Both the position numbers and the translations under genes were made by a program. The notes under the pieces are model-generated. The model saw only the letters and a list, made by a program, of their open reading frames with translations. It was not told where the DNA came from and did no database searches. DNA of 32,000 nucleotides from Bdellovibrio sp. GT3 (GTDB taxonomy: Bacteria > Bdellovibrionota > Bdellovibrionia > Bdellovibrionales > Bdellovibrionaceae): assembly GCF_037996765.1 (NCBI RefSeq), contig NZ_JBBNAD010000005.1, positions 1-32,000 of the forward strand. The letters run 5' to 3'. Below are positions 160 through 20,841 of the stretch, piece after piece; the first letter of the stretch is position 1; the number at the start of each line of letters is the position of its first letter.

Positions 160-1366
160 CATTGCCATTGAGGGTGCTGTAGGCGGCAAAGCCACTGTTG
201 GCGTCGCGTTGGGTGGGCACTTCGATACTGGTACTCAAGCTGGTCAAAATAAAATTGCAGCTGCTCTAGTTTGCGATACCGCTTATGAAAAGACTGGTTC
301 AACCTGCGAAGTTGCCATTCTAAAAGCCAAGCTTCTACGAAATACTGGTGGTTCTGGCACATGCGTGATCACCTTAGAGGACAAAGTTAAGTGTTTTGGA
401 ACAGGGTATTTTGGTAGCGGAACATCTTCAGCATTTTCAGTTCCCACTGAAGTAACTGTCTTCCAAGGTGCAAAAGATATCGCACTAGGTGCTCACATGT
501 GCGCAATTATGTCTGATAATAGCGTTAAATGTGGCGGTCGAAATAATTATGGTCAATTGGGTTTAGGAGACACCACAGATCGTGCAACTCCAGTGACCGT
601 ATCAGGTTTTCAAGGTGCAAAATCTATTTACACTGGCCCGTTTACAACATGTGCAATTTTCAATGACAACTCCGTTAAGTGTACGGGAGCGAATGGTCTC
701 GGGACTCTCGGTTTGGGTGACTACAATGACAGAAGCTCTGCCGTAACAGTTCCTGGCTTTGCTGGAGCAACACAAATTGTATTCGGAACGAGCAACACCT
801 GTGCATTACTCTCAAACCAAAAGGTTGTTTGCACTGGCTATCTTGGCTATGGATCACTTAGTCTTTCCAATTCTCCTTACCGAAACACGCCCGTCGAGAT
901 CCAAGACTTTGCCGGAGCCCTAGAGATCACAGCGGGTGCGTTGCATACTTGTGCAAGAATCGCCGATGGCTCAGTAAAATGTATCGGCCAAAACTATAGC
1001 TACCAACTTGGCGATGGTTCAAATACTGATCGACCGTCTGCCGTAACAATTCCAGAACTTCAAAACGCGGTTTCGATATCCGCAGGCACTTACTCAACTT
1101 GCGCAGTTCTGCCTGGGGGATCTGCAAAATGTGCAGGCTGGAATACAAGCGGAGAACTAGGCACAGGTAATGTCTCCAACCAGCCAAGTCCAGTAGCCGC
1201 CTACTCTTCCAACACAGTCTCGTCAATATCTGTCAGCATCAGTCACTCCTGCGCAATTGTAGCGAACAGCAAAGTTAAGTGCTCGGGTGACAATGGATAT
1301 TACCAACTCGGCAACATTGACCAAGTTGACCATACCACCCCAGTTTTTGTGGTTAAAGGGAACTAG
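62..1366 (+). CDS. RCC1 (regulator of chromosome condensation)-repeat beta-propeller protein
   Basis: Six or seven repeats of about 50 aa carry the RCC1 signature (C-A/G-x-x-x-D/N-x-S/K-V-K-C-x-G-x-N-x-x-G-Q-L-G-x-G-D). The start is uncertain. TTG at 62 and ATG at 92 both lack a convincing Shine-Dalgarno, and there is no signal peptide. Confidence 0.75.
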   Translation: MKQQPEILYPMLYAHPHLLLPKRSYQSPAGSIDIAIEGAVGGKATVGVALGGHFDTGTQAGQNKIAAALVCDTAYEKTGSTCEVAILKAKLLRNTGGSGTCVITLEDKVKCFGTGYFGSGTSSAFSVPTEVTVFQGAKDIALGAHMCAIMSDNSVKCGGRNNYGQLGLGDTTDRATPVTVSGFQGAKSIYTGPFTTCAIFNDNSVKCTGANGLGTLGLGDYNDRSSAVTVPGFAGATQIVFGTSNTCALLSNQKVVCTGYLGYGSLSLSNSPYRNTPVEIQDFAGALEITAGALHTCARIADGSVKCIGQNYSYQLGDGSNTDRPSAVTIPELQNAVSISAGTYSTCAVLPGGSAKCAGWNTSGELGTGNVSNQPSPVAAYSSNTVSSISVSISHSCAIVANSKVKCSGDNGYYQLGNIDQVDHTTPVFVVKGN

Positions 1367-1726
1367 ATGGGTAATTTCATAGTGTTCATAGTGTTAGCGA
1401 TAGGTGTTCTTATCTACAATATGCAACTCAGTTCCATGGGAGGAAAAGAAGGGGCTCTAGCATACGACCTAATCCGGCAAGAGTTAAAAGACCCAAGCTC
1501 CGCTTCTTGGGACTCAATCAAAGTGCTGTCAAAGGAGAATGGCAGAAGCTTAGTGGTTGCGGATATCACTGCGAAAAATAGCTTCAACGCAAATGTAAAA
1601 TCTCGCTTTTGTGTTTGCGTCGCCTTGGCCGATAAGGTCGGAAAAGTACTATCAACCGATGGTGGTTGCCAACCAATAGAAATGTTTAAGAATGAATGTG
1701 CCTCCCTTACGATTCATAAACAATAA
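1367..1726 (+). CDS. hypothetical small protein with N-terminal transmembrane anchor
   Basis: The ATG directly abuts the RCC1 stop (TAG ATG), which suggests translational coupling. The N-terminus is hydrophobic (FIVFIVLAIGVLIY). I recognised no family. Confidence 0.5.
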   Translation: MGNFIVFIVLAIGVLIYNMQLSSMGGKEGALAYDLIRQELKDPSSASWDSIKVLSKENGRSLVVADITAKNSFNANVKSRFCVCVALADKVGKVLSTDGGCQPIEMFKNECASLTIHKQ

Positions 1727-2174
1727 AGTTTGCCTTCTAATAGGGGCACTATTTTGCTTGGGATGCTCACCAGCTTCTCCCAGGGTATACTCTCTTAGTG
1801 AGCTTGGATCACTCAAAGAAGTTTTCTCTTACTCAACAGATACCTTTGATCCGAACTTTATTTCGACCGACGCTTCCATTGGGATAAAAACATTCATCAA
1901 GCAGTTTCAGGTTACCAAGCTAAACAATGGAGCTGCATTTGTCTCAGCCACAGTTGTTTCAGATTCCGGTGTATTACCGATAACTGAATACATGATCTCT
2001 TCGGAAAAGATCAGCAACATAGGTTATTTCGACTCTTCCGCTTCAAAGGTTTATTATGAAATTGATCTTACGAGCGAACTTCCTAGCCTAACCATAGAAG
2101 CTGATTTTGATGGAGATAGGACAAACAATACGCCAGCAACTGTTACTGCCTTGCGAAAATCTCCCCTAAAATAG
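1692..2174 (+). CDS. hypothetical putative lipoprotein
   Basis: The N-terminus looks like a signal peptide ending in a lipobox-like LFCLGC|S. The ORF overlaps the previous one by 35 nt. Confidence 0.45.
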   Translation: MNVPPLRFINNKVCLLIGALFCLGCSPASPRVYSLSELGSLKEVFSYSTDTFDPNFISTDASIGIKTFIKQFQVTKLNNGAAFVSATVVSDSGVLPITEYMISSEKISNIGYFDSSASKVYYEIDLTSELPSLTIEADFDGDRTNNTPATVTALRKSPLK

Positions 2175-2175
2175 C

Positions 2176-3423
2176 TCAAGCTTTGTGAAAACTGAAACCA
2201 CAAATGGTTTCCAAAACCTTCATCATGTTACCAAAATCGTAGCTGGCTACTGAAGATCGTCCGTCCTTGATATCCAAAAGAATTTTATCAAAGCTAGCCT
2301 GGATATCTGCCTTTCTGGATACTTCCCCCTGATACTTTTTCTGTCCTTCGATGAACCCCTTCCAAATAACTGGATGGAACATGCCCAATTGATGCCTCAA
2401 TGCCTCGACCGGAAAATATAGCTCAATGCTTCCGGCAAGACCATTCACGTCCATATCAACTGACCCTTGTGGGCCAACTGTCGGGTAGTTTTTCAAAAGA
2501 TCAATATCTGGAAGTGACACGATTCTGATGTTTTTGCGTAGTTTTAACTCCTTAAGATACTTCATTGAGTCTTTAGCCGCTGTGTCGTTATCAAAGACGG
2601 CTACGATATCATTACTAATTCCCGCTGCGGATAGCGCTTTGATTGTGTGAATCAGAGACGAAGCACTGCCCTGAAGTTTATTCTCTTCAAAGTCCAAGAA
2701 AGAATAACAACTTGCTAAATGTGGCTTAAGAATTTGCAAAGATGCTTCAATGTATCGTCTATCAGTCACGCCCTCCGTAAGGATGACGGTTTTCGATTGA
2801 GGTGAATTGCTCGACAGATCTTCTTCTGCATCAACATATCCTCCATGTACGAGTTCGCTATATTCCATGGTCACAAACGTTCCCAGCTTGTCTGGAAATG
2901 TTGATAAAATTGCAAGAAATGCGTTGTTATCTAAACTTGAAAGCCCGTAATCATTAAAGTCACTGTGTTCAAGGAACAAAAAATCAATCTCATTTTCAAC
3001 ATAAAAGATGTATGTAAAAGGCTCGGGATTTGAGGTTTTCTCCCCTGCCATATATCTCTGAATGAGCTTTCCCCACGCATCAAAATCAATGACCTTTATA
3101 AGTTCCAAACTCTTTTCAATCTTTGCAACATCCGTGTATCTGTCTTGATCAGCAAGGCGCGATTCAAAATCTGCAATCACTTCCGCTTTATATCTTTCAA
3201 ATGATTCACGTCCGGCATCTAACGTAGCGCCGCATGCTTGGAGCCTCTCAATAGCCGTAAAGATAGGTACTGTATATTTATAGACAACAGACTCCCCGTC
3301 TTCTGTGTTTTCTGTCGAGATGACCTTATCTTGGGGAGTAAAAAAATCTGTGGTGATTGGATAAGACTTACTGCTTAAAACCTCTTCGTTTCCAAAATAC
3401 AGACCGCACCAGCTTCCCACCAT
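2176..3423 (-). CDS. Toprim-domain protein with a large N-terminal HEPN/Toprim-associated-like domain (putative nuclease)
   Basis: The C-terminal half carries a Toprim acidic signature, TVILTEGVTDRRYIE (conserved Glu) and VAVFDNDTAAKD (DxD). GGAGG (plus-strand 3427-3431) precedes three consecutive in-frame starts: TTG 3426, ATG 3423 and GTG 3420. GTG has the best spacing and would give an N-terminus of MGSWCGLYFG. Confidence 0.7.
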   Translation of the reverse strand: MVGSWCGLYFGNEEVLSSKSYPITTDFFTPQDKVISTENTEDGESVVYKYTVPIFTAIERLQACGATLDAGRESFERYKAEVIADFESRLADQDRYTDVAKIEKSLELIKVIDFDAWGKLIQRYMAGEKTSNPEPFTYIFYVENEIDFLFLEHSDFNDYGLSSLDNNAFLAILSTFPDKLGTFVTMEYSELVHGGYVDAEEDLSSNSPQSKTVILTEGVTDRRYIEASLQILKPHLASCYSFLDFEENKLQGSASSLIHTIKALSAAGISNDIVAVFDNDTAAKDSMKYLKELKLRKNIRIVSLPDIDLLKNYPTVGPQGSVDMDVNGLAGSIELYFPVEALRHQLGMFHPVIWKGFIEGQKKYQGEVSRKADIQASFDKILLDIKDGRSSVASYDFGNMMKVLETICGFSFHKA

Positions 3424-3572
3424 CAACCTCCGACTAGACCTTCTAAAAAAAGATCCATGGGGACTTAGATATCATGAAAACAAAAATAATTTAAAAAAAG
3501 ACAGAAAAGTTCATCAGAGCAGAATTTTTTTGGAACGAAGTTGGTAAAGGCTTTGAAAAGGAGGACTACAAC

Positions 3573-5516
3573 ATGAACAAGTCCACAGAATCGAACAAGC
3601 CATTCAAACTAATCGGTATTAAAGAACAACGTGACAGCCAAGCAGAGGGTCGCCCGGCAAAGAGTTTCCAGGAGTACCCAGGATTAACTCCAGCGAATGA
3701 GGAGCTAGAGACGGCTTCGGATAATGTGTCTCAAGATGAGAACAAAGAGGAAATTCAAGAGGTTACAGAGATCAATATCAATGAATTTCATGAATCTCGT
3801 CGCCCATTACTTCACCTTTCTGTTGATATTGACACGGATGGCCATTATAATAAAGAAGACACTTCAAATGTTACTCAAGTAGCTGAAAAGACTAAGAAGT
3901 CTAAGAAGGGTTTCAAAGTGAAACAGACAGACCGTTTCAAGACCCCATGGTTTGAAAATTTGTATGCCTCAATTAAAGACAGTAAAGTTGGTCACACCAG
4001 CCTATTAAGCGAGAAGGAACTGGAAAAGCGCTTATTGGAGCCCTTGCCTGAAGGCTTCACAATGCTAGAAGTTCTAGAAGCAATTCGCTACAGACAGCGT
4101 GAATATCGTAAAGACATCATGCCGCAAGTATCAAACTGGGAAGAGTTAACTGGTTTAACGCTTGAAGATTATAGACCAGCACTTGGTAAGCTTTTAACGC
4201 CACAATCCTTGAAGCAAACATTAAGCGCATTAACTCGCCACTACATTGAATTCCTGAAAGATACTTACTCCAGCGACGTAAAGTCTGGAGTCCATAGACT
4301 AAAAGATCCATGGTCAATCAAAGTTCTACACCTTAAATCGGAAGTCATTGGCCAGTTCAACGAATGGCTGGAACATCTAGAAACAGGTTACCATCTCTCG
4401 GATGCTTCAAAAATACGTGGCGTTGCAAGACTGATCTTTGAACGTACAAGCAACCCCATTCGCACACGTGCGACAAGATATTCATCGTTTAATCCAGAAA
4501 TCGAAGATCTTCTGAGATTGTATCAAACGACTGGTACAAGCAACGAAGACTCCAAAAGCGTTGCATCTGCCGCCCGCAAGGCAATTAAGCTTGCTGGAAT
4601 TCAAACTGCAGACGAACTTAAATCTACCAAAGGTTTAGAGAAAATCGCGTTTCTCAATTACAGTGGAGAGGTTTCTGATGGCGACAAATCACGCAGCAAA
4701 AAGTTCTTTTGGTGGCTGGGACAGGAATTTAAATTCAAAGTGCCACCCTACTTCGAGTCCAACAAAATCGAGACCATTCATCAGTTAACAGATGATCAAA
4801 ATGCTTGGTTTCAACTCAACATTGCCCAAGTCTTGGATAAAAGCATCTCCAAGCGTAAGGACTACAAACAACAGTTGGACCTATATCGTTTGATTATGGC
4901 CCAGCTGAGCACAAGAGATGTCCATAAATTTACTGACGTCCTGCCGTCAGACTTCATTGCGGCAGCCGCACTCGCGTCCAAACACCAACGTAACCTAGGC
5001 ATTTTGCGCGGACTAAAAGGAATATCACAAGCTTTAGTAACCTATTCATCTCAAAAGAATAAGTGGAAATACTGTTCTGCGGAAACGTTCGATCAATTTG
5101 AGAATCGCTGTTTGGATTCAATCGAAGGCTGCGGTGACCGCAATCTGGAACAACTCGATCTTAATCGCTACAAACCCGTATTTAATTCACTAGATGGATC
5201 ATGGAGCGCTTTCTTCCCTCTGATTATGCAGGACTTCAGAGCAGCTGCTTTGGCTGACGAAAAATGCAGAGAAGGAAAAAGATCAGTTAAAAAATCACTG
5301 GCAACTCCTGAACACTACAAACTCATCTATGAAAACTTATTAACCGTTGGTCATGGCAAACCCTGCGGCAATCGCAAAACAGGTGCGGTGCAAGATTTAT
5401 ATGGGACGTATAGAACTGGTGGATTACTGGATAAAAATCCGAACACCCTTTCCCAAGATGAAAAAAGAAGCTTAGAAAAGTATACGGCTTATGCGCTCCA
5501 AGCATTTGGGGGTTAA
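3573..5516 (+). CDS. N-terminal 647 codons of a large tyrosine-recombinase-like protein (acidic N-terminus, repeated helical core-binding-like modules); reading frame ends at a G5 run
   Basis: A strong RBS, AAAGGAGGA, lies 7 nt upstream of the ATG. The ORF stops at TAA 5514-5516, immediately after GGGGG at 5508-5512. The catalytic domain continues in another frame (see next feature). Confidence 0.7.
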   Translation: MNKSTESNKPFKLIGIKEQRDSQAEGRPAKSFQEYPGLTPANEELETASDNVSQDENKEEIQEVTEININEFHESRRPLLHLSVDIDTDGHYNKEDTSNVTQVAEKTKKSKKGFKVKQTDRFKTPWFENLYASIKDSKVGHTSLLSEKELEKRLLEPLPEGFTMLEVLEAIRYRQREYRKDIMPQVSNWEELTGLTLEDYRPALGKLLTPQSLKQTLSALTRHYIEFLKDTYSSDVKSGVHRLKDPWSIKVLHLKSEVIGQFNEWLEHLETGYHLSDASKIRGVARLIFERTSNPIRTRATRYSSFNPEIEDLLRLYQTTGTSNEDSKSVASAARKAIKLAGIQTADELKSTKGLEKIAFLNYSGEVSDGDKSRSKKFFWWLGQEFKFKVPPYFESNKIETIHQLTDDQNAWFQLNIAQVLDKSISKRKDYKQQLDLYRLIMAQLSTRDVHKFTDVLPSDFIAAAALASKHQRNLGILRGLKGISQALVTYSSQKNKWKYCSAETFDQFENRCLDSIEGCGDRNLEQLDLNRYKPVFNSLDGSWSAFFPLIMQDFRAAALADEKCREGKRSVKKSLATPEHYKLIYENLLTVGHGKPCGNRKTGAVQDLYGTYRTGGLLDKNPNTLSQDEKRSLEKYTAYALQAFGG

Positions 5517-5539
5517 GATTTCGCTCTGAAAGTGATTCT

Positions 5540-6313
5540 TTGATTTACTATGATTATGCTCCGCTTTTAAATGAAGACACCGAATCTTGTATTTTCCCAA
5601 AAACCTATAAAGACAAATACTTAGGTGAAATCACATGTCTTGCACTCTTTCAACAAGGCGAGAATAGAAAGGTAGACTTAAGCTATTTGGTTCCTTTGAG
5701 TACGCTTTGCGACGAGTTTTTACTGATGCATCTCGCAGCACAAAACATTAAGCATGGTCAAAAAATCTTTACTTTAAATGTTTCAACACTCGCCGATGAC
5801 ATCAAAAGAACCTCGTGCAAATGGTTTAAAGCTAACATGAGCTTTGAAAAACTGCTGGAAGGAGAGACAAATAAGGCTTTTACAACTCACCGTTTTAGAA
5901 ACATCTTAGTACGTTCGATCGCTACATACTACGATGGAAGCGACTCAATTGAGATCCAAGCGCTAGTGTTGGGCCATACTCCAGATAGAACCGAAGGGTC
6001 TTCATCGACGGATATTTACACTGAATATCTAGACAATTGTGAAAAACACTTTGCAACTCTGAGACGCATTAAAGATCAAAACTACAATACGGATTCTGAT
6101 CTAAGAAACCTACGCCTTGAAGAAAGCATTGCAAAATTAAAAGCTGAGAATGAGCAATTGCACTTTAAAACTCATTTAGGAATCGACGAGATTCTGGATA
6201 AAGTGGCGGCGCAAGAGAAGCAAAAGCAACTTGCCCTTGAATGGATTTCCCAAAATCTAAGTGAGGCACTTCAGGCCACAGCGAAGCAAATCGAAAGCTC
6301 TGTGAAAAAGTAA
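5540..6313 (+). CDS. C-terminal catalytic domain of a tyrosine recombinase (HxxR / LGH / Y motifs) followed by a coiled-coil tail; probably the frameshifted continuation of 3573..5516
   Basis: Motifs present are HRFRNILVRS (HxxR), LVLGHTP (His/Trp box) and DIYTEY (nucleophile Tyr). There is no SD before TTG 5540. This frame is open back to 5462 and there reads ...GLRFRSE, which matches the box-I Arg motif. Confidence 0.65.
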   Translation: MIYYDYAPLLNEDTESCIFPKTYKDKYLGEITCLALFQQGENRKVDLSYLVPLSTLCDEFLLMHLAAQNIKHGQKIFTLNVSTLADDIKRTSCKWFKANMSFEKLLEGETNKAFTTHRFRNILVRSIATYYDGSDSIEIQALVLGHTPDRTEGSSSTDIYTEYLDNCEKHFATLRRIKDQNYNTDSDLRNLRLEESIAKLKAENEQLHFKTHLGIDEILDKVAAQEKQKQLALEWISQNLSEALQATAKQIESSVKK

Positions 6314-6324
6314 GCGTTGTGCTT

Positions 6325-6347
6325 GGGCGCCATCCGTACTGGCGCCC
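6325..6347 (+). terminator. GC-rich hairpin downstream of the recombinase-like gene (GGGCGCC-9 nt-GGCGCCC)
   Basis: The stem is a perfect 7 bp. No T-run follows, so function as an intrinsic terminator is uncertain. Confidence 0.35.
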
Positions 6348-6444
6348 CTATCAAGAACCTTCGATGAAGGTCCAATTCTTTTAGGTTTGAGTGATTTTTG
6401 ACTCCAAAATAAATACTATTTGTTTATTTACAAGGGAGTTCAGC

Positions 6445-6936
6445 TTGGCGAGAAACGTATTCTACAGCTTTCATTATTTAGTAGATGCATTCCGTGTATC
6501 ACAAGTCAGAAATATGGGTGTCATTGAAGGAAATCAGTCCATTCGTGATAACGACTGGGAAACAGTAAAAAAGGGCGGCGATGCCGCTATTCAAAAATGG
6601 ATAGACGACCAACTTCAAGGCAGATCCTGTGCAGTAGTCCTTATCGGCAAAGATACTTACGGTCGAAAGTGGATCAATTACGAAATTCAGAAAGCGTGGG
6701 CATCCGGAAAAGGTGTTGTGGGAATTCATATCCACAATTTAAAAGATTCTGGTGGAAATCAAACTACAAAAGGGGTCAATCCTTTCTCATATTTCAACAT
6801 CAATGGAACTCCTTTCAACAATATCGTTAAAGCCTACGATCCCCCACACTGGGACAGTAAAGAAGTCTACGCTCACATCAAGGCGAACATTGAACATTGG
6901 ATTGAAGAAGCAATTGCCATCAGAGGGAAGTACTAG
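6445..6936 (+). CDS. thsB: Thoeris ThsB, TIR-like (DUF1863 / MTH538-type) protein
   Basis: The sequence NVFYSFHY...VSQVRN...CAVVLIGKDTYGRKWINYEIQKA...GVVGIHIHNLKD matches the ThsB/DUF1863 pattern, including the catalytic-Glu motif W-x-x-Y-E-I. The likely start is TTG 6445, preceded by AAGGGAG at 6432-6438. The ORF track starts earlier, at GTG 6391. Confidence 0.85.
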   Translation: MARNVFYSFHYLVDAFRVSQVRNMGVIEGNQSIRDNDWETVKKGGDAAIQKWIDDQLQGRSCAVVLIGKDTYGRKWINYEIQKAWASGKGVVGIHIHNLKDSGGNQTTKGVNPFSYFNINGTPFNNIVKAYDPPHWDSKEVYAHIKANIEHWIEEAIAIRGKY

Positions 6937-6939
6937 TCT

Positions 6940-8397
6940 ATGATTAGCAGCCCACAAGAAGTTGAACGTTTTGTAGAAGATTTCGTACTAGCCCTGAGAG
7001 AAGATAATGCTGCGCTGTTTGCTGGCGCGGGGCTCTCTATCCCGTCAGGATTTGTAAACTGGAAGGAACTCCTTAGGGACATTGCAAAAGACGTGAACTT
7101 GGACGTCAATAAAGAATCTGATTTGGTAGCAGTAGCGCAGTACCACATTAACAGTACTGGCAATCGTAATAAAATTAATCATCAGTTACTAAATACTTTC
7201 TCGCAGAAAGCAAAGCCTTCAAAAAGCCACGAGATCATCGCATCCCTCCCCTTCAAAACGGTTTGGACAACGAACTACGACACCTTAATTGAAGATGCCT
7301 TTACTCATGCAGGAAAAGTTGCGGACGTAAAACACAATCACAGCCAATTACCACTTACTAGGGCTGGTCGATCTGTCGTTGTCTACAAAATGCATGGAGA
7401 TGCATCCGCGCCAAGCCAAGCAGTCTTAACGAGAGATGACTACGAATCGTTCTCAGAGAATCGAAGCCTGTTTACGACTGCACTTCAAGGGGACTTGGTT
7501 AATAAAACTTTCCTCTTTCTTGGATTTAGCTTCTCTGATCCAAACATCAATTACATTCTTAGTAGAGTCAGAATATTACTCGGCAACCAAAATCAACGGC
7601 AACACTACTGTCTCATGAGGAAAGTTCAGAGGAAAGACTACGTCAAAATCGGTGACTTTCGATACGACGAGAATAAACAAAAACTACAAGTTGATGATCT
7701 GAAAAGATATGGAATCAAAACACTGCTTCTTAGTGATTTCGGTGCCGTCACTGCAATTCTAAAAAAGATACAGAGCAAGTTTAAGCGTCATAGAGTTTTT
7801 ATTTCAGGCAGTGCATTTACTGGAGCTTATTCTCCACATTGGTCTTCAGACCTCAAGTCCCAGAAGTTCATTCACGGTCTTGCCTATGAATTAGTAAAAA
7901 AGGGCTATGATGTGGCTTCAGGTTTTGGCGATGGCGTGGGCAGCGCTGTAATCAATGGTGCCTTGCAGTTTTCGGATGAGACCGGCCAAGAACTAGGCGA
8001 CAAACTTGTATTGAAGCCATTTCCTCAGTTTGCCACTACCCCCCGAGAACTAACATCCATGTGGCAAGAGTACCGAAAGAGTATGCTGAAAAATGTAGGT
8101 GTAGCCGTCTTTGTCTTCGGCAGCAAACTTCACGAAAATGGCGGCATTGTAAATGCTCCTGGAGTAAGGAAAGAATTTGAAATTGCCAGACAACTTGGAA
8201 TTAAGCTGATTCCTGTGGGCGTCACTGGATGGATGTCCGAACAGCTTTGGAATGAAGTTGAAACAAATTTTAAATTATTTTACGGAGACAATACAAAAAT
8301 CCGGGCCCAGTTCAAAAAGCTGGGAAATACAGATTCCACGCCCAACCAAGTTACTAAAGCAATTTTAAATATTATTGATTTGATCACACAGGAATAA
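6940..8397 (+). CDS. thsA: Thoeris ThsA, SIR2 NADase domain fused to a C-terminal SLOG nucleotide-sensor domain
   Basis: As I recall Bacillus ThsA, the resemblance runs along the whole length. Shared motifs include AALFAGAGLS, WTTNYD (Asn112), VYKMHGD (His152), FLFLGFSFSDPN, FISGSA and SGFGDGVGSAVINGAL (SLOG Gly-rich motif). The start lies 3 nt after the thsB stop, with a GAGGGAAG RBS. Confidence 0.92.
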   Translation: MISSPQEVERFVEDFVLALREDNAALFAGAGLSIPSGFVNWKELLRDIAKDVNLDVNKESDLVAVAQYHINSTGNRNKINHQLLNTFSQKAKPSKSHEIIASLPFKTVWTTNYDTLIEDAFTHAGKVADVKHNHSQLPLTRAGRSVVVYKMHGDASAPSQAVLTRDDYESFSENRSLFTTALQGDLVNKTFLFLGFSFSDPNINYILSRVRILLGNQNQRQHYCLMRKVQRKDYVKIGDFRYDENKQKLQVDDLKRYGIKTLLLSDFGAVTAILKKIQSKFKRHRVFISGSAFTGAYSPHWSSDLKSQKFIHGLAYELVKKGYDVASGFGDGVGSAVINGALQFSDETGQELGDKLVLKPFPQFATTPRELTSMWQEYRKSMLKNVGVAVFVFGSKLHENGGIVNAPGVRKEFEIARQLGIKLIPVGVTGWMSEQLWNEVETNFKLFYGDNTKIRAQFKKLGNTDSTPNQVTKAILNIIDLITQE

Positions 8398-8401
8398 TTC
8401 T

Positions 8402-8944
8402 ATGGCTCTATACAAAAAATCAGAACTTAAAGCAAAAGCATTGAACAAATCTCTTACTAAAAGCATGGCAGAGGACAGATTTGTAAGAGGACTTATTACC
8501 TTAAATGAAAGTTCCAACTTTGACGTTTTTCTCTCGCACCGTTATTTAGATGCAGATGAAATTGCAATACTTGCTGACGAGCTTCGCGGAGAAGGTCTGA
8601 GCGTCTATATCGACTGGCAGGTTGACAAAGGTTTGGATAGAGGAAAAGTCACTATTAAAACTGCTGAAATCCTTAGGAAGCGCATGAAACAAAGTAAGAG
8701 CTTGATCTTCATTACGTCACAAAACTCTTCGGATTCAAAGTGGATGCCTTGGGAACTAGGATTTATGGATGCACGCACTTCACGCGTTGCAATTCTTCCG
8801 GTTGTGGACGACAACTCTACATCATATCAAGGTCAGGAATATCTTGGACTGTATCCATATATATCAAAGACCGGCACCACTATCTTGGTAAATGATCCAC
8901 AAACAGGTGCACAGAAAACAATCCGCCATTGGTTGATGCCTTAG
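8402..8944 (+). CDS. thsB: second Thoeris TIR protein, canonical TIR-domain type
   Basis: FDVFLSHRYLD...SKSLIFITSQNSSDSKWMPWELGF is the classical TIR pattern (DVFxSH ... S-x-W-x-x-x-E-L), with the putative catalytic Glu at residue 118. The start lies 4 nt after the thsA stop. Confidence 0.85.
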   Translation: MALYKKSELKAKALNKSLTKSMAEDRFVRGLITLNESSNFDVFLSHRYLDADEIAILADELRGEGLSVYIDWQVDKGLDRGKVTIKTAEILRKRMKQSKSLIFITSQNSSDSKWMPWELGFMDARTSRVAILPVVDDNSTSYQGQEYLGLYPYISKTGTTILVNDPQTGAQKTIRHWLMP

Positions 8945-9030
8945 TCGTCCGGAAAATGAACTCATTCAATAATCTATTCGTCTTCGATTCCGTCTGATTT
9001 GTTGCAAAGGAACAACAATAGAGGTGAAGT

Positions 9031-9195
9031 GTGAACGAACTATCCGAAATAATAAAAACTCTCCGACTTGCGGCAATTCAGAATGATATGTGGGTCGAGT
9101 ACTTTCGACTCGTTGCCATTCAAAACTTTATAGAGTCAATCGAAGGGCAAAGCTCCGCCCCCTCGAAGACAAAATCTTTAAGTAAACTTCATTAG
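9031..9195 (+). CDS. 54-aa hypothetical helical micro-protein (MNELSEIIKTLRLAAIQNDMWVEYFRLVAIQNFIESIEGQSSAPSKTKSLSKLH)
   Basis: The ORF is below the 60-aa cut-off of the ORF track and was found by eye. GTG 9031 lies 6 nt after GAGG. The TAG stop at 9193-9195 directly abuts the 12-bp hairpin at 9196..9226. It is on the same strand as the Thoeris operon. Confidence 0.35.
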   Translation: MNELSEIIKTLRLAAIQNDMWVEYFRLVAIQNFIESIEGQSSAPSKTKSLSKLH

Positions 9196-9226
9196 AATAT
9201 TTCCGAGGGTACCTCTCGGAAATATT
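9196..9226 (+). terminator. perfect 12-bp inverted repeat AATATTTCCGAG-GGTACCT-CTCGGAAATATT
   Basis: The repeat is seen directly in the sequence. It lies 251 nt after the last Thoeris gene and directly after the 54-aa ORF. A moderately T-rich tail follows (TGTTCAATTTT). It could instead be a protein-binding palindrome. Confidence 0.5.
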
Positions 9227-9309
9227 TGTTCAATTTTGCTCTACTATTGCTTTTAGGAAGCCGATAACAGACACTGTATTTATTCAGAATTCAGTAGTCT
9301 GTTACCTGC

Positions 9310-9519
9310 TCACCTAAAGAATTGCATCACCGTATCTAATATTACTGGATGCCTTTCCAAGAACTCGTAAAGAGCAAATACAACCGTCATCAGTGTCGCC
9401 AGATCAACTCTGACGACGGTATTTGGTTGTTGCGGTTGCGGGAAGCTCACAACCGTTATTGTTGTTTCTCGCAGCTGCTTCCTGGGCTGCGCTTGTTTCA
9501 CGGCTTTTTTCGCTGCCAT
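9310..9519 (-). CDS. 69-aa hypothetical protein with basic N-terminus and hydrophobic C-terminal half
   Basis: On the minus strand, GGAGGA sits 4 nt before the ATG. A TATAAT hexamer on the same strand lies about 60 nt upstream. I recognised no family. Confidence 0.4.
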   Translation of the reverse strand: MAAKKAVKQAQPRKQLRETTITVVSFPQPQQPNTVVRVDLATLMTVVFALYEFLERHPVILDTVMQFFR

Positions 9520-9811
9520 GTTGTCCTCCGGGACGTTTTTGAAAGCAGACTATCTACCTTCAAGATTCATATTCAAACGAAGTATTATATCCCCTATTTC
9601 TGGTTATCTTGGTGGCGAAGGGGCGTATTTCTCATAAATAGTTTGAGACCCTCCCCCTACTCCTTACCGGATAAAGAAAGGCTTTCCTCAACTGGATATG
9701 CTATGGCCGAAGGAAAATACCGTAAAAAGTATGAATTACTCTTTCATATTGAACTAATTCGATCTGAAGCTTGAATACATCTTCTAGATTAGTTATTGAG
9801 TATTCATTGGT

Positions 9812-9820
9812 CCCCCCCCC
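9812..9820. repeat. C9 homopolymer tract 24 nt upstream of the 9845 start
   Basis: The sequence reads directly as tattcattgg-t-ccccccccc-aatcgg. Confidence 0.9.
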
Positions 9821-9844
9821 AATCGGAAACCATGGAGTTGATGT

Positions 9845-10195
9845 TTGAATCAGGAAACACTTCAAATACACCATGAGGCAGCCATAAATAAGATAAGGGC
9901 ACAGCTCTTTAAAGGTGCCTCTGCGTCGTCATTAAAGATCCTAGTGGAGAGTGAGGTGGTAATACCACCTACCCTTCCCCAGAATCGCCAACGAAATGCT
10001 TTACTGGGTGGTTTAAGATATGAATTGGAAAAACACCCAGGATGCCATATCGAAATAAAGCATGAGGGTGGTGATCTATTTACAATCTATAGCACCAGAA
10101 CTGTACTTAGCAGAGTTCACACTGGTTTCGTGAGAACGGTAAAGTTCAGCGAGATTCAAGCCGTTGCAAAATCATTCATTCTGGCGACCAGTTAG
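9845..10195 (+). CDS. 116-aa hypothetical protein
   Basis: The start is TTG, with GGAG 7 nt upstream. The stop overlaps the convergent SRAP stop (TTAG). I recognised no domain. Confidence 0.45.
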   Translation: MNQETLQIHHEAAINKIRAQLFKGASASSLKILVESEVVIPPTLPQNRQRNALLGGLRYELEKHPGCHIEIKHEGGDLFTIYSTRTVLSRVHTGFVRTVKFSEIQAVAKSFILATS

Positions 10196-11160
10196 GCACC
10201 TGACGATATGACATGTTCATACACATGTGATGCAGGACTATCCAAAACAGTTTCTATGGCCCTACTCCCATAGCGTTCGGGCTCCATCCAAACTCCCAAA
10301 TTTTGCTCCTGCAAAGCGATAATTAGACGATCATGCCCAGCTTCCCGTACCTCGGACGTTGGCTCATGAGTGAGCGCAGCAAAGGAGTAAAACCCATCAG
10401 ACGGACCAGACTCCCAATAGTCATAAAGGCATGCAATTAGTAAGTCCGAACGATCTTTGGGACTAAACTGAAGAACCATATTTGTGTCCTTCTCTCCATC
10501 CTTTAACGAACGGCGTTCGTAGTCCGCCTTGGATACATTCTCATAGAAGCTCTCAACGACGAAGAATCCATGTTTATGAAGATAGAGGTCCTTCCAAAAT
10601 GCATTGCCAAGGTTGTCTCTTCTGGCGTTGTAAAGACCATTATACTTTACATCAATTGATTCGGGCTTATCGGAAGGTCGACAATGGTATCGAGCTAACT
10701 TGATGATGTTTTGGTCGTTCTCACGGACGATGATTGGAGCAAATGTCATTGGAAAAACTCTTGAATCCGTGGGAATCAACTCAGTTCGCTGAATTCCTTT
10801 AATCCGTTGCGAGTAGTACTCGATCTTATCCGTCGAAATGCGCTTTTCATTTAAGGCTTTCTTGGTTTCTTTCACCGACAGACTCAGTTCTGCCGCGTGC
10901 ATACGCTTACCCTGAAAGCGTAAATGCTCTTCAAGATCTTTGAGCTTCAACTTTCTGTACGCTTGAATTAGTTTTGAAATCTCTTTGTCTTCGTTGTTTT
11001 CAGGATGATCAAATTCAGCCTCAAGTGCTTTGCAAATCTTAATACGCTCATCAGTTAAACGACGATAAAACATCTCTTGAAATAGTTCATAGTCGATTCG
11101 TGCGTCGTATTTGATACCAAGTTTTCTAATTTGTTGCTTTACCATGGCGCTATAACACAT
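10192..11160 (-). CDS. SRAP (SOS-response-associated peptidase, YedK/HMCES family) protein with a helical insertion of about 110 aa
   Basis: From ATG 11160 the N-terminus is Met-Cys, the nucleophilic Cys2 typical of SRAP. Also present are YNARRDNL (Asn), FVVESFYEN (Glu) and GHDRLIIAL (His). A charged helical segment sits between Cys2 and the conserved core. The ORF track starts 2 codons earlier. Confidence 0.8.
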   Translation of the reverse strand: MCYSAMVKQQIRKLGIKYDARIDYELFQEMFYRRLTDERIKICKALEAEFDHPENNEDKEISKLIQAYRKLKLKDLEEHLRFQGKRMHAAELSLSVKETKKALNEKRISTDKIEYYSQRIKGIQRTELIPTDSRVFPMTFAPIIVRENDQNIIKLARYHCRPSDKPESIDVKYNGLYNARRDNLGNAFWKDLYLHKHGFFVVESFYENVSKADYERRSLKDGEKDTNMVLQFSPKDRSDLLIACLYDYWESGPSDGFYSFAALTHEPTSEVREAGHDRLIIALQEQNLGVWMEPERYGSRAIETVLDSPASHVYEHVISSGA

Positions 11161-11273
11161 AGACAAATTACAGCATAAATTTAGATTCCTACCAAAGGCT
11201 AAATTGAAACGTTCACCAACGCAAAATCTAGAACCAATTTGTAATAACCCTATAAATAATTTACTGTTTTACA

Positions 11274-12146
11274 ATGAAAGACCAAACATTCATCCTAGAT
11301 GTTAATGCCCTACTAAAGTTCCCCCAAGTTCTTGCAACCTCTAGTCTCCATCAAAAAATAATTATCCTCCCGGGTGTGCGAAAAGAACTCGAGGAGTATA
11401 TTCAACTGAATAAACCTTCTTTCGGAAAAACCTTAATTTCAATGATTGAAAATAAGGTTGTGGGTACATCAATCCGAATTCTAGAAAGTTTAGATCCATT
11501 GCTCCTTAATACACCTTCGGACATCCCGACGGGCAAAGAGGCTCTAGATCGACAACTGATTCTGTATACAGACGCTCTTCAGAAAGCAAATCCCGACAGT
11601 GAGGTATATCTTGTCACTGATGATGCGAGAATCTCCACCGCGTTTCGTCTTGCGGGAAGAGAAAAGCTAACATTACCGGTACGAGAATTTCAAGAAAAGA
11701 TAGACTCCATTCATCAGGATTCAGGCGTAAAGGGTGATATTGAAAATGCAAAGAAAGAATCAAGCAAGCGACTAGCGTTTGACGTCATCAATGCATTGCT
11801 TGCAGTCTTCGCAGCGATAGTTTCTGTCACTGGTTGGGATAAGATCCAAACATTTTTAACTTCTATTCCAATAGATGGGTTGATCTATAGTGGAATTTTA
11901 ACACTTCCCTTTATTTTATATTTTTGTCGATTCAAATGGAGATGGAAGTACGGATTAGCAGAGCTGGTGTTTGGTTTATTATTAACGGGAACATCAATCC
12001 ACATTGCAACACTAGATAAATTTGAAACAATCGCTAAAATCGCATCCGGTCTATTTCTTTGTGTTCGAGGCCTAGATAGTTTTCACGTGGGAATTAGCGA
12101 TTCAGAATGGGCTGTTAGATTTCCCATCCTGAAAATCAAAAAGTGA
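11274..12146 (+). CDS. PIN-domain nuclease fused to a C-terminal 3-4 helix membrane domain
   Basis: PIN acidic residues are in the expected context: FILDVNALL (Asp), GVRKELEEY (Glu) and YLVTDDARI (Asp-Asp). The C-terminal 130 aa contain hydrophobic spans FDVINALLAVFAAIVSVTGW, LIYSGILTLPFILYFC, LAELVFGLLLTGTSIHIA and IAKIASGLFLCVRGL. Confidence 0.7.
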   Translation: MKDQTFILDVNALLKFPQVLATSSLHQKIIILPGVRKELEEYIQLNKPSFGKTLISMIENKVVGTSIRILESLDPLLLNTPSDIPTGKEALDRQLILYTDALQKANPDSEVYLVTDDARISTAFRLAGREKLTLPVREFQEKIDSIHQDSGVKGDIENAKKESSKRLAFDVINALLAVFAAIVSVTGWDKIQTFLTSIPIDGLIYSGILTLPFILYFCRFKWRWKYGLAELVFGLLLTGTSIHIATLDKFETIAKIASGLFLCVRGLDSFHVGISDSEWAVRFPILKIKK

Positions 12147-12206
12147 TGCTATTCAGGATAAGCCGGATAAGGATCATTGGTCTGAGACCGGAATCACCTT
12201 TTGTCC

Positions 12207-13886
12207 CTAGCTTTTTAGCAAGATCTCCACACGTTGATCAGGGTAAACCACCACTCTCTCTAGCAGTGCAGAGACGATCGCCTTTCTATGGTCAAAACTT
12301 ATACTTTCACCAATAAATCCTCTCACGCTGTCCAAAGGGTTGATGCGATTCTGATTACTGCTGATTTTTTTGGTTTGAATTCTAATACAATCTTGGACTT
12401 GCTTAGCGACCTTATCCAGCTTCGACTTCTCGTCATCAATACGATTTTTTTGCATCGTCCAATCTTCCTCAGTGAGAATCCCTCTTCCTAACAACGAAAC
12501 AAGATTATTTCTCTCAGTATTAAGCTTCTTCTGATCTGCCAGTAAAACTTCTAGATCCGCCTGCAGCCGATCTAACTCTCTTCTTAGAAATTCCGTGGAC
12601 TTTTTCTTCTGATGAACAAGATCTATTACGTCATTCTTCAGGTAATGCTCAACTCTTTCCCATACGATCTTATCAATGGAATCACTTACATGGTATTTAC
12701 GATGATCACATGCCTCATGTAGACCATTTTTCTTGGTCTGACACGCGTAGTACTTTGCTACACTCTTTTCAATGGATTTGGTTGATTGCTTATAGAAGTC
12801 ATTGTGTCTTGCTCTAACACCCATTTTTCTGCCGCAAGTTCCACAATAAACATTCCCCTGCAGTAGATACTCCTGAACGGCATGTCTCGGCGTCACACAT
12901 GCTCTTCCAAGACGAGCTTGCTTTGCTAAGGCCCAGTCTTCCGGCGAGACAATCGCCGGAATCTTAACGGTGATTTTCTCCCGAGCTACTTCGGAATTTT
13001 GTTTCTTACCTACTTGCGCTACATGCTTGAGATGATACACGTGCTCTCCTGTATATCTATCATCACGGTAAATATTCGTTAGCCAGTTACGCGGCAATCT
13101 ACCAAGTGGGTTCTTTTGTGCTGCCACTCTGAAATTGCTTCTTCTGAAGTAGCTTAGAAGATTTACTCCCGCCAACTCTAGTGCAGAAATCACCTCCTTA
13201 TCGGACACCCCGAAAGCATTCTTTTCCACCAACAACTTCAAAGAAGCAGGCATGTCGCCTGTGGTGTTGCCTGAAGCTAATGCCACTGCCCAACGTACGG
13301 CTTGCGCCTCATAAGGCACTACACTCCATACATTCTGGATCTTATCAAATTCATACCCCCAGAAGGCTCTGCCATTAGGCGGACGTCCATTGTTTTGAAC
13401 TTTAAATTTCTTCCCGATGTGCAGCTTTCTGAGTGTCTGCTTTTTATCCTCCGCACCAATTGCAGACATGAACTGCAAAACCAAACCACTATTCACATGA
13501 CCAGTCGGAGTATAGATCTGAACTTCGTGCTCCTCGATCAAATCCATGATTTGACCGCGAACACTGTGCGAACGAGCTCTAAATATACGATCTATATTAT
13601 CTACGTAGATGCCGTTGATTTCTCTATCTCTACAAAGCTGTAAGAGCTGGTAAAATGCGGTACCCTCACGGATTTCCTCAAGGTTGTACGCTTCATCAAT
13701 AAAGTATTGATCACTTAAAGCTTCGCCAGCTGACCTCGCGTAGAGGGTTGTACTCCCACCGTCTAAGAGCCCTAGTCTCTTCAACTCAATTGCTGCTTGC
13801 TCTATTTGGCGATGGATATTCCCACCGGTTCTTTGCTCGTCAGACGACACTCTGCAGTAAACTGCCAGAGAAAGTTTTGCTGTCAT
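12207..13886 (-). CDS. large serine recombinase (integrase)
   Basis: The resolvase catalytic motif is AVYCRVSSDEQ. It is followed by a recombinase domain, a zinc ribbon (CGTCGRKM ... YYACQTKK ... CDH) and a C-terminal coiled coil. ATG 13886 is preceded by GAGGAGG at 6 nt. The ORF-track start at 13892 is a TTG. Confidence 0.9.
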   Translation of the reverse strand: MTAKLSLAVYCRVSSDEQRTGGNIHRQIEQAAIELKRLGLLDGGSTTLYARSAGEALSDQYFIDEAYNLEEIREGTAFYQLLQLCRDREINGIYVDNIDRIFRARSHSVRGQIMDLIEEHEVQIYTPTGHVNSGLVLQFMSAIGAEDKKQTLRKLHIGKKFKVQNNGRPPNGRAFWGYEFDKIQNVWSVVPYEAQAVRWAVALASGNTTGDMPASLKLLVEKNAFGVSDKEVISALELAGVNLLSYFRRSNFRVAAQKNPLGRLPRNWLTNIYRDDRYTGEHVYHLKHVAQVGKKQNSEVAREKITVKIPAIVSPEDWALAKQARLGRACVTPRHAVQEYLLQGNVYCGTCGRKMGVRARHNDFYKQSTKSIEKSVAKYYACQTKKNGLHEACDHRKYHVSDSIDKIVWERVEHYLKNDVIDLVHQKKKSTEFLRRELDRLQADLEVLLADQKKLNTERNNLVSLLGRGILTEEDWTMQKNRIDDEKSKLDKVAKQVQDCIRIQTKKISSNQNRINPLDSVRGFIGESISFDHRKAIVSALLERVVVYPDQRVEILLKS

Positions 13887-14031
13887 TAGCAACCTCCTCT
13901 TGGGCCTTTACCAAGATCGCATGCAGAATTTTTTCGACTCTTGCTAATTCCAGCTCTGAAATAGCTTTTTCTGACTTTTTTAAGATGATTTTGTAGGGCT
14001 TGGGCTTTGGACCGCGCTTGTTTGCAGGCAT
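13840..14031 (-). CDS. 63-aa basic protein upstream of and overlapping the integrase start; candidate recombination directionality factor or DNA-binding accessory protein
   Basis: ATG 14031 has AAAGGAG 6 nt upstream. The N-terminus, PANKRGPKPKPYK, is basic. The ORF overlaps the recombinase start by 47 nt. The longer ORF-track version (to 14271) runs into the tRNA gene and is rejected. Confidence 0.4.
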   Translation of the reverse strand: MPANKRGPKPKPYKIILKKSEKAISELELARVEKILHAILVKAQEEVANDSKTFSGSLLQSVV

Positions 14032-14231
14032 TAGGTACTCCTTTTGGAATGAAATCCAAAAGGTCTTTACCAATATGAACCATAAAACTGCGGGATTTGA
14101 ACGATAAAAAACGACGATACAGATCACCCCGAGGGGGTAAAATTTGTCGCACTTGTCTAAAAGTTTTCCAGGGAACCGACATCCGGGAGAGACCTCTCCG
14201 GAGTTTAAATTGTGTCGATTAGTTTTAGATT

Positions 14232-14314
14232 TGGTGCCCCGCGAGGGACTTGAACCCCCACGCTTGCGCACTAGATCCTAAGTCTAGCGTGTCTGCCAAT
14301 TTCACCAGCGGGGC
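14232..14314 (-). tRNA. tRNA-Leu, anticodon UAG, CCA encoded
   Basis: The reverse complement is GCCCCGCTGGTGAAATTGGCAGACACGCTAGACTTAGGATCTAGTGCGCAAGCGTGGGGGTTCAAGTCCCTCGCGGGGCACCA. It has a 7-bp acceptor stem and anticodon stem CTAGA/TCTAG with loop CTTAGGA. It also has a long variable arm (class II) and a T-arm with GGTTCAAGTCC. Confidence 0.9.
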
Positions 14315-14372: not shown

Positions 14373-14762
14373 TTATTTGTCTGCGATCAATTTTTTGTAA
14401 TCTGGAGCGCGCATCAAGTTAGCAAGCTCCTTTTCAGTATCCATTTCGATACGAACCAACCAGCCTTCGTTCACTGGATCGTCGTTCAAAACTGATGGAT
14501 CGTCGCCCAAAGACGCGTTTACTTCGATTACCGTGCCAGAAACTGGCGCGTAAAGGTCAGAAACCGCTTTTACGGACTCAACCACCCCAAAGATTTGACC
14601 TTGAGTGATCTTTTGACCTTCTTCTGGAAGTTCAACGTAAACGATCTCGCCCAAAGAATCCTGTGCGAACTCTGTGATGCCGACAGTCACGATGTTCTCG
14701 TCAACTTGAGCCCATTCGTGTTCTTTTGTGTAGTAATAGTCTTCAGGAATATGAAATGCCAT
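14373..14762 (-). CDS. gcvH: glycine cleavage system protein H
   Basis: The lipoyl-lysine motif VESVKAVSDLYAPVSG is present and the length is a typical 129 aa. AAGGAG precedes ATG 14762. Confidence 0.93.
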   Translation of the reverse strand: MAFHIPEDYYYTKEHEWAQVDENIVTVGITEFAQDSLGEIVYVELPEEGQKITQGQIFGVVESVKAVSDLYAPVSGTVIEVNASLGDDPSVLNDDPVNEGWLVRIEMDTEKELANLMRAPDYKKLIADK

Positions 14763-14772
14763 GATGGGCTCC

Positions 14773-20836: not shown

Positions 20837-20841
20837 AAAAA

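Follow-up and report, generated by a model that had tools for sequence, protein, structure and literature searches.

Introduction

Thoeris anti-phage systems now number types I to XI and use several different signals; those described are triggered by a phage structural protein, for example the major capsid protein. Their effectors differ, the type II effector being a TM-macro protein and that of type IV a caspase-like protease. In type I, defence is abolished by the N112A and by the E85Q substitution, and Bacillus dafuensis provides a precedent for two TIR proteins that are unrelated by BLASTP and confer additive specificities (10.1101/2021.01.06.425286). The residues with which B. cereus ThsA contacts 3'cADPR have been defined (10.1101/2022.05.07.491051), and activation through filaments is reported to be conserved in type I ThsA (10.64898/2026.03.01.708072). 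A different use of two ThsB proteins has been demonstrated in the type I system of Staphylococcus aureus, where a capsid-binding TIR recruits and activates its partner and only the recruited TIR needs catalysis for 3'cADPR production (Roberts et al. 2025, PMC12578639).

Phage defence in Bdellovibrio has hardly been studied. In the literature searched, Bdellovibrio and Thoeris appear together in three papers, each of which names Bdellovibrio once. Here, we analyzed the first 32,000 nucleotides of a contig of Bdellovibrio sp. GT3 (NZ_JBBNAD010000005.1), hereafter the window. We assign, with a probability of about 0.9, a three-gene locus in it to type I Thoeris as an operon thsB-1/thsA/thsB-2 that would act by the general mechanism set out below. 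A known defence system explains the stretch, and no new hypothesis is needed.

Results

The operon consists of three open reading frames on the + strand, at 6391..6936, 6940..8397 (485 aa), and 8402..8944 (180 aa), separated by 3 nt (6937-6939) and 4 nt (8398-8401), gaps that were confirmed in the DNA. The ORF list and the DNA are in agreement on the three co-strand genes and the spacing that an earlier sequence-only reading had described. The profile families named in that reading, SIR2_2, STALD/SLOG, ThsB_TIR (DUF1863), and TIR_2, were all matched, and PADLOC returned its ThsB, ThsA, and ThsB models in gene order (3e-72, 3e-188, and 2e-54). Together with the catalytic residues, these matches support its call of type I Thoeris, a known family, and standard defence-finder tools would call the locus.

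The genes are co-oriented and contiguous, and an SD-like motif can be read in the DNA upstream of each of the three starts. A terminator scan located a terminator-like hairpin on the + strand at 9195..9227, whose 15-bp stem is perfectly paired and whose tail contains U residues. It folds at -18.3 kcal/mol (z = -4.7), which none of 200 shuffles equalled, and it probably marks the 3' end of the operon. We considered a 54-aa ORF at 9031..9195 as a fourth gene and set it aside as unproven; it has an SD-like motif but no family match, and it is absent from 80 other ThsA loci.

The middle gene, thsA (6940..8397, + strand), encodes a predicted 485-aa effector that joins, in a single polypeptide, an N-terminal SIR2 NADase domain (Pfam SIR2_2, residues 107-230, 1.5e-31) and a C-terminal SLOG/STALD signal-binding domain (STALD, residues 270-480, 1.2e-66). 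The protein matched PADLOC ThsA1 over its full length (2.9e-188), B. cereus ThsA (PDB entry 6LHX) over residues 8-482 with 44% identity (6.7e-130), and EcThsA (8WC0; 1e-125). Its identity to any other protein in a collection of 5.8 billion, the same strain aside, is at most 56%, and the search for plasmid relatives at the DNA level gave a single 196-bp match of 70% to a Vibrio SIR2 gene.

The Asn of WTTNYD and the His of YKMHGD, proposed earlier as catalytic, are residues 112 and 152. They occupy the same alignment columns as N112 and H152 of B. cereus ThsA, a residue-for-residue match, and are invariant in 119 relatives. The motifs FISGSA and SGFGDGVGSAVINGAL, from which a SLOG-type domain had been proposed, both lie within the C-terminal half.

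Compared with the B. cereus pocket (G289, S290, L326, Q359, R371, K388, G399, and E403), seven of the eight 3'cADPR contacts are identical in thsA (G290, S291, Q363, R379, K396, G408, and E412). The equivalents of G289, R371, G399, and E403 are invariant or near-invariant in the 119 relatives; those of S290, K388, and Q359 are likewise kept. The eighth contact deviates, with D331 in place of L326, and this counts against the Thoeris reading. That column is variable among the 119 relatives (L, Y, V, E, Q, and others) and holds Asp in none of them. The hydrogen bond of B. cereus L326 runs via the backbone (10.1101/2022.05.07.491051).

The first gene, thsB-1, encodes a protein with a single domain, a TIR of the ThsB_TIR/DUF1863 type. 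The sequence-only reading began it at GTG 6391, which is merely the furthest-upstream start of the ORF and lies 54 nt too far upstream. Counted from there, every profile and PDB match starts at residues 18-20. An SD-like AAGGGAG (6432..6438, + strand, read directly from the sequence) stands 6 nt before a TTG at 6445, and the product of an independent gene prediction from the Logan assembly is 163 aa long, corresponding to 6445..6936 of the window. On these three grounds we rejected GTG 6391. The N terminus predicted from TTG 6445, MARNVFYSFHY, can be set beside MAKRVFFSFHY of B. cereus ThsB. The most likely extent of thsB-1 is thus 6445..6936 on the + strand, 163 aa.

Numbered in this way, thsB-1 carries F6 and a catalytic-type E80, the latter being E98 when counted from GTG 6391. 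The protein matched Pfam ThsB_TIR (PF08937, 4e-25) and PADLOC ThsB (3.2e-72, profile positions 2-163 of 164). Among solved structures it matched 8wcf (EcThsB) at 1e-40 over 158 residues, and 6lhy and 9b7d (BcThsB) at ~1e-24. The Glu of WINYEI, which had been taken as catalytic, is E80 and aligns with E85 of BcThsB.

The third gene, thsB-2 (8402..8944, + strand), encodes a TIR_2-type protein of 180 aa with ~39 residues before the TIR core. Pfam TIR_2 (35.9 bits, above the cutoff of 28; 1.2e-08) and PADLOC ThsB (1.9e-54) both matched. ThsB-2 aligns with a B. cereus TIR protein (PDB entry 8BTN, 5.5e-39) such that its WMPWEL falls on the WMPWEL of 8BTN. F43 and the catalytic-type E118, the Glu that the sequence-only reading had picked out in this motif, are invariant in a 50-sequence family alignment. 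A TIR fold was confirmed in an AlphaFold2 model (AF2, pLDDT 87), for which the best Foldseek match was 8btn (TM 0.74/0.81), with classical TIR domains next in rank. The operon thus holds two thsB genes beside thsA, each with a TIR domain and a catalytic-type Glu (E80 and E118). BLASTP detects no similarity between the two proteins. The PDB titles 8BTN 'Crystal structure of BcThsB' and 8WCF 'EcThsB'; we take the 8BTN protein, the solved relative of thsB-2, to be ThsB'.

ThsB-2 has its nearest relatives (53-54% identity) in loci of two kinds, those with an adjacent caspase-like protease and TIR clusters devoid of a SIR2-SLOG gene. One such locus, L082, combines three TIR genes with a caspase-like protease, and two others, L083 and L084, are TIR clusters without SIR2-SLOG. 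Given these neighborhoods, the product of this TIR type cannot be read from its family alone, a point that weighs against the reading preferred here. As a separate observation, SIR2-SLOG loci share one TIR_2-type sensor family with loci whose effectors are caspase-like, which calls for caution in deducing a signal molecule from the TIR family alone.

These neighborhoods, and the variety of signals across Thoeris types, would suit a reading in which ThsB-2 makes a nucleotide that ThsA does not read (e.g. 2'cADPR or N7-cADPR), leaving ThsB-1 as the sole true partner and ThsB-2 as a remnant of, or a sensor for, another Thoeris type. We consider this very unlikely. There is no alternative effector candidate beside thsB-2, which is followed by the unconserved 54-aa ORF and then the terminator; its spacing from thsA is 4 nt; a TIR_2-type ThsB adjoins a SIR2-SLOG ThsA in 18 of 51 related loci; and the solved relative, 8BTN, is a B. 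cereus protein whose entry is titled as a BcThsB structure.

The same 51 loci bear on how the two TIR proteins might share one effector. ThsA with one TIR of each type is a common gene content, seen in 17 of them. The usual three-gene order in these relatives is B2-A-B1, the reverse of that found here, and none of the 51 loci surveyed, including the 17 with both TIR types, has the exact order B1-A-B2. A DUF1863-type ThsB accompanies the TIR_2-type in 17 of the 18 loci where the latter adjoins ThsA, whereas the DUF1863 type is often the sole TIR with ThsA.

We somewhat favor a model, within the type I assignment, in which the two unrelated TIRs would serve as parallel sensors for one effector and widen the range of phages recognized, as has been demonstrated in B. 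dafuensis. The 17/18 co-occurrence is explained by a TIR_2-type ThsB that depends on its partner no less well than by one that senses independently. Such dependence would follow the S. aureus scheme introduced above, established in a type I locus that encodes two ThsB proteins; its catalytic partner Sau-ThsB2 (F6/E81) resembles thsB-1 (F6/E80). We regard a cooperative pair of this kind as possible but rather doubtful. Sau-ThsB1 (41.8 kDa) has its TIR at the C terminus (E318/F242), behind a large N-terminal extension, whereas the TIRs here are short, and the invariant Glu and Phe of the thsB-2 family are expected of an enzyme and not of a pure adaptor. The B. cereus 8BTN protein, moreover, reportedly needs no partner to make 3'cADPR in vitro (work of Tamulaitiene et al. 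in 2024), which also counts against such a pair.

Two variants would go beyond these models, and we give them jointly an outside chance. Either the locus encodes a minimal cooperative TIR pair, in which one TIR needs the other without the large S. aureus adaptor domain, or D331, at the adenine-stacking position, shifts the ligand preference of ThsA and the TIRs signal via different cADPR isomers. Either, if true, would extend the understanding of multi-TIR Thoeris and open phage defence in a predatory bacterium to experiment for the first time.

The chromosome had been described as Bdellovibrio-like, and rightly so, since an NCBI protein of Bdellovibrio sp. GT3 is 100% identical. The further claim of a serine-recombinase island is plausible: the stretch that holds the operon has a GC content of 0.419 versus 0.463, and a tRNA-Leu and a large serine integrase adjoin this low-GC stretch. 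The locus probably sits on a mobile or integrative element. A search for a duplicated tRNA-Leu end that would mark the island borders found no repeat of at least 13 nt in the window and the 3 kb upstream; with a serine integrase such a repeat is expected to be missing.

An Rfam scan of the window returned the tRNA-Leu only, and PADLOC detected no other defence system among the neighboring window ORFs tested. Upstream of the window, in L001, it identified an IetA-like AAA+ ATPase. Two hairpins lie between an upstream 913-aa gene and thsB-1. By eye, the C terminus of the 913-aa product shows HxxR...LGH...Y; we rejected it as a tyrosine recombinase or system part after null results with Pfam (E up to 1), PADLOC, PHROGs, and PDB sequences.

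Our scan upstream of thsB-1 found no convincing sigma-70-type promoter with a crude, E. coli-type consensus. This result counts against reading the system as active. The operon might accordingly be intact-looking but silent cargo, acquired horizontally on the island and unexpressed or ineffective in Bdellovibrio; its position in a low-GC stretch beside the integrase fits such an origin, as does the state of the 913-aa gene, which in this assembly is split by a homopolymer-length difference between assemblies. We judge silence improbable. None of the three genes is truncated relative to its profile, the invariant catalytic and ligand residues are all kept, the SD-like motifs and tight spacing are retained, and the promoter consensus was crude. 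The operon sequence is identical in two independent assemblies; outside the operon, the homopolymers at window positions 5508 (G5 or G6) and 9812 (C8 or C10) may reflect sequencing error or real variation.

Discussion

Judged from its sequence, the operon is apparently an intact, ordinary copy of a well-known anti-phage system. We infer that it is functional, that is, that it would be expressed, signal, deplete NAD, and protect against phage, with the TIRs sensing independently. In the type I model, phage infection would switch on one or both TIR proteins, and ThsB-made 3'cADPR, the presumed signal, would activate the NADase of ThsA. ThsA tetramers would rearrange or stack into filaments, and the SIR2 site (N112 and H152) would then hydrolyze cellular NAD+, halting phage replication by abortive infection.

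The locus adds sequence diversity and no new principle. It documents type I Thoeris in a Bdellovibrio, on what is probably an integrative island.

Type IV-like loci such as L082 contain, in P0123, the relative closest to thsB-2 among the matches listed with visible neighbors (53% identity). Their effector is a Peptidase_C14 protein and not SIR2-SLOG. The window has no Peptidase_C14 gene, and the only effector-like gene of the operon encodes SIR2-SLOG, as opposed to the type II or type IV effectors.

The S. aureus 08BA02176 ThsA-B1-B2 system is likewise type I with two ThsB proteins, and its catalytic partner resembles thsB-1. It differs in Sau-ThsB1, a two-part protein that serves as a non-catalytic capsid-binding adaptor; neither TIR here (163 and 180 aa) is a long (~42 kDa) ThsB whose N-terminal part binds capsid and whose C-terminal TIR is catalytically dispensable. 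In E. coli Thoeris, EcThsB (8WCF) is the best solved match of thsB-1, and EcThsA (8WC0) matches thsA; we know of no second, TIR_2-type ThsB in that system. B. dafuensis FJAT-25496 (ThsA, TIR1, and TIR2) is alike in gene content, with one SIR2-SLOG ThsA and two TIRs without BLASTP similarity to each other. Both of its thsB genes follow thsA consecutively, whereas here they flank it.

B. cereus MSX-D12 (ThsA 6LHX/8BTO, ThsB 6LHY, and TIR 8BTN) belongs to another phylum, and the locus differs from it in the ~44% identity of ThsA, in the Asp at the L326 position, and in a gene order of DUF1863-type TIR, ThsA, and TIR_2-type TIR. The two systems share the ThsA architecture, the N112/H152 numbering, and the 3'cADPR pocket; thsB-1 aligns with BcThsB, F6 and E85 included, and thsB-2 matches the 8BTN TIR by sequence and, best of all, by predicted fold.

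A type I Thoeris operon and its gene boundaries

The interpretation of the three genes as a type I Thoeris operon proved real and correct, as the SIR2_2, STALD, ThsB_TIR, TIR_2, and PADLOC ThsA and ThsB profiles all match. Its assignment to a known rather than a novel family is borne out by the PADLOC scores (thsA, 2.9e-188 over the full length; thsB-1, 3.2e-72; thsB-2, 1.9e-54). Both reported spacings between these same-strand genes, 3 and 4 nt, can be read in the DNA, where thsA occupies 6940..8397 and thsB-2 8402..8944 on the plus strand, and the peptide motifs quoted for the three proteins were all found.

The start of gene 1 at 6391 has to be corrected. All profile and structure alignments begin only at residues 18-20 of the 181-aa ORF with the furthest-upstream start (6391..6936, plus strand), and the evidence points to TTG 6445, giving a 163-aa protein (6445..6936). 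A strong Shine-Dalgarno-like sequence, AAGGGAG, lies 6 nt 5' of this TTG, and an independent gene call in the Logan assembly of the same organism yields a 163-aa product corresponding to the same interval. The resulting N terminus, MARNVFYSFHY, resembles that of B. cereus ThsB, MAKRVFFSFHY. Shine-Dalgarno-like motifs also precede thsA (GAGGGA, 6923-6928) and thsB-2 (AGGA, 8390-8393). Downstream, a hairpin at 9195-9227 with a perfect 15-bp stem (-18.3 kcal/mol, z = -4.7 by RNA folding) looks like the operon terminator. Between it and the thsB-2 stop lies a plus-strand 54-aa ORF (9031-9195) that has a GAGGTG Shine-Dalgarno-like motif and ends directly against the hairpin stem; it matches no family, and none of 80 other ThsA loci (the best 80 of 316) contains an equivalent.

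ThsA retains the SIR2 and SLOG signatures

Profile searches with the middle protein were positive for both proposed domains, SIR2_2 (1.5e-31) and STALD (1.2e-66), the latter being the Sir2- and TIR-associating SLOG family. The match of ThsA to B. cereus ThsA (BcThsA, PDB entry 6LHX; 6.7e-130) spans residues 8-482 and shows 44% identity. The Asn and His were found at residues 112 and 152 as described, and their numbering is the same as in BcThsA because the alignment is gap-free from the N terminus to residue 210.

The reported 3'cADPR contacts of BcThsA are Glu-403, Ser-290, Arg-371, Lys-388, Gly-289, Gly-399, Leu-326, and Gln-359 (10.1101/2022.05.07.491051). Transferring them through an alignment with 119 relatives, we found seven of the eight positions identical. 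The contact Arg and Glu and the Gly equivalent to Gly-399 are invariant in the family alignment, and the equivalent of Gly-289 is present in 118 of 119 relatives. The sole difference is Leu-326, which is Asp-331 here; this column holds Leu (64), Tyr (29), Val (6), Glu (6), Gln (5), and others, with Asp in none of the 119 relatives. The Leu-326 contact comprises a backbone hydrogen bond and side-chain stacking (10.1101/2022.05.07.491051), and we regard Asp-331 as a minor oddity of this ThsA.

Both flanking genes encode TIR proteins

The proposal that gene 1 is a TIR-type protein with a catalytic Glu agrees with our data. ThsB-1 is of the ThsB_TIR/DUF1863 type (Pfam, 4e-25); among solved structures its best relative is the E. 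coli protein 8WCF (1e-40; entry title, "Crystal structure of EcThsB"), and BcThsB (6LHY/9B7D) follows at about 1e-24. The Glu of WINYEI (Glu-80 when counted from TTG 6445) lines up with BcThsB Glu-85, and Phe-6 with BcThsB Phe-6. The E85Q substitution in B. cereus ThsB abolished both defense and signal production (10.1101/2021.01.06.425286).

Gene 3 likewise encodes a TIR protein with the predicted Glu. ThsB-2 is of the TIR_2 type (1.2e-08, above the gathering score), and shows no BLASTP similarity to ThsB-1 (E = 0.78). Its Phe-43 and Glu-118 do not vary when it is aligned with 49 homologues. The AlphaFold2 model built on this alignment is confident (pLDDT 87.3, pTM 0.84), and in structure comparison it comes closest to 8BTN ("Crystal structure of BcThsB"; TM 0.74/0.81; 5.5e-39 by sequence), with next in rank the classical TIR domains of TLR10, TIR-1, MyD88, RUN1, and SARM1. 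We take the 8BTN protein to be ThsB', which, according to Tamulaitiene et al. 2024, reportedly produces 3'cADPR in vitro on its own.

The closest ThsB-2 relatives with visible neighbors (longer contigs, 53-54% identity) do not lie beside SIR2-SLOG genes. One of them belongs to a cluster in L082 (4115-6564) in which three TIR genes surround one for a caspase-like protease, in the order ThsB_TIR, Peptidase_C14, ThsB_TIR, and TIR_2; this resembles type IV Thoeris. The TIR cluster of another has no recognizable effector. L083 (6001-8881) and L084 have three TIR genes with unknowns of 147 and 260 aa, and neither cluster contains a SIR2-SLOG gene. This TIR family is common to several Thoeris types, so the product of ThsB-2 cannot be deduced from the family. 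We argue that ThsB-2 would signal to ThsA because of the 4-nt junction with thsA, the lack of another effector, and the kinship with the B. cereus TIR protein.

Chromosomal setting

Bdellovibrio sp. GT3 proteins at NCBI match ThsA and ThsB-2 with 100% identity; their annotations go no further than "SIR2 family protein" and "toll/interleukin-1 receptor domain-containing protein." The placement of the operon on a serine-recombinase island is a reasonable inference. The operon stretch has a low GC content (0.419 at 1401-14200 versus 0.463 at 14400-32000) and adjoins a large minus-strand serine integrase (12207-13892; Resolvase, Recombinase, and Zn_ribbon_recom domains; PHROG integrase family, 1.3e-46) and a minus-strand tRNA-Leu (14232-14314) at its end, but no duplicated tRNA segment or att-like direct repeat was found for the borders. 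Its right end also carries an SRAP-domain protein (10192-11166, minus), a PIN_4 protein (11274-12146, plus), and a 63-aa ORF that follows the integrase and precedes the tRNA (13840-14031, minus). Ordinary chromosomal genes follow, including glycine cleavage T and H, D-Tyr-tRNA deacylase, and NamZ. A plus-strand LOG/"possible lysine decarboxylase" protein (31196-31792; PF03641, 2e-43; SLOG cluster4 match) is a SLOG protein of the housekeeping type with no relation to the Thoeris SLOG domain, with which motif scans could confuse it.

Directly 5' of the operon lies a plus-strand orphan ORF of 913 aa (3573-6313; 6633-9374 in L001, which extends upstream of the window) with no match in Pfam, PADLOC, PHROGs, or PDB sequences. 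In the window it is split into pieces of 647 and 257 aa because a run of G residues at about 5508 reads G5, where the Logan assembly has G6. The two assemblies are identical across the operon and differ outside it in three homopolymer runs and three bases; the remaining differences (C8 versus C10 at 9812, C4 versus C3 at 121, and the three bases at 170-216) are either sequencing errors or variable tracts. Further upstream, a minus-strand 416-aa protein (2176-3426), whose N-terminal domain is of the HEPN/Toprim type (PF18871, 4.9e-10), has no PADLOC match and is a possible uncharacterized conflict or defense gene of the low-GC stretch. L001 213-4426 encodes an IetA-like AAA+ ATPase of 723 aa (PADLOC, 1.5e-38), then an HTH_3 protein and an RCC1-repeat protein of 502 aa that reaches window 62-1366.

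Distribution and gene order

In a collection of 5.8 billion proteins, the next-best ThsA has 56% identity, and more than 2,600 proteins from many phyla score below 1e-20. Scanning one genome per GTDB species gave 316 ThsA loci, and TIR relatives were located by tblastn in the best 80. In 51 of these, thsA is flanked by 1.5 kb or more on each side. With A for thsA, B1 for DUF1863-type, and B2 for TIR_2-type thsB, their orders were A-B1 (23), B2-A-B1 (8), A-B1-B2, A-B1-B1, and B1-A (4 each), B1-A-B1-B2 and A alone (2 each), and four singletons. Both TIR types occur in 17 of the 51, and none has the exact order B1-A-B2. The gene content is standard and the order a rare permutation, to which we give little weight. 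A Syntrophomonas MAG (L019, 4627-10430) carries two tandem ThsA-ThsB pairs, whose ThsA copies share 46 and 44% identity with the query.

Comparison with characterized Thoeris systems

In type I Thoeris, ThsB detects infection and produces 3'cADPR, which acts on the ThsA SLOG domain and leads to NAD+ depletion by SIR2 and aborted infection (10.1101/2022.05.07.491051; 10.1101/2021.01.06.425286); ThsA activation proceeds via filament formation, reported to be conserved across type I effectors (10.64898/2026.03.01.708072). We adopt this model because all the sequence features that it requires are present: a ThsB of the operon would detect infection and produce 3'cADPR, which would bind the SLOG domain of ThsA, whose SIR2 domain would deplete NAD+ and abort the infection. 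Thoeris function in Bdellovibrio is predicted. The operon adds a new and fairly divergent member to a thoroughly characterized system, and PADLOC-type tools would call its locus automatically. The small remaining novelty lies in the host, Asp-331, and the presence of two putative sensors.

Two precedents, both with experimental support, bear on the latter. TIR1 and TIR2 of B. dafuensis are parallel sensors with additive phage ranges (10.1101/2021.01.06.425286), whereas S. aureus has a cooperating pair in which ThsB1 binds the capsid and recruits ThsB2, the catalytic partner, activating it (PMC12578639). A cooperating pair of the S. aureus kind is kept alive by the company that TIR_2-type ThsB keeps, the DUF1863 type accompanying it in 17 of 18 loci. 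The S. aureus adaptor, however, has a mass of 41.8 kDa and includes a large extra domain, whereas ThsB-1 and ThsB-2 are both short, single-domain TIR proteins with invariant catalytic residues. We therefore prefer to view them as probable parallel sensors, as in B. dafuensis.
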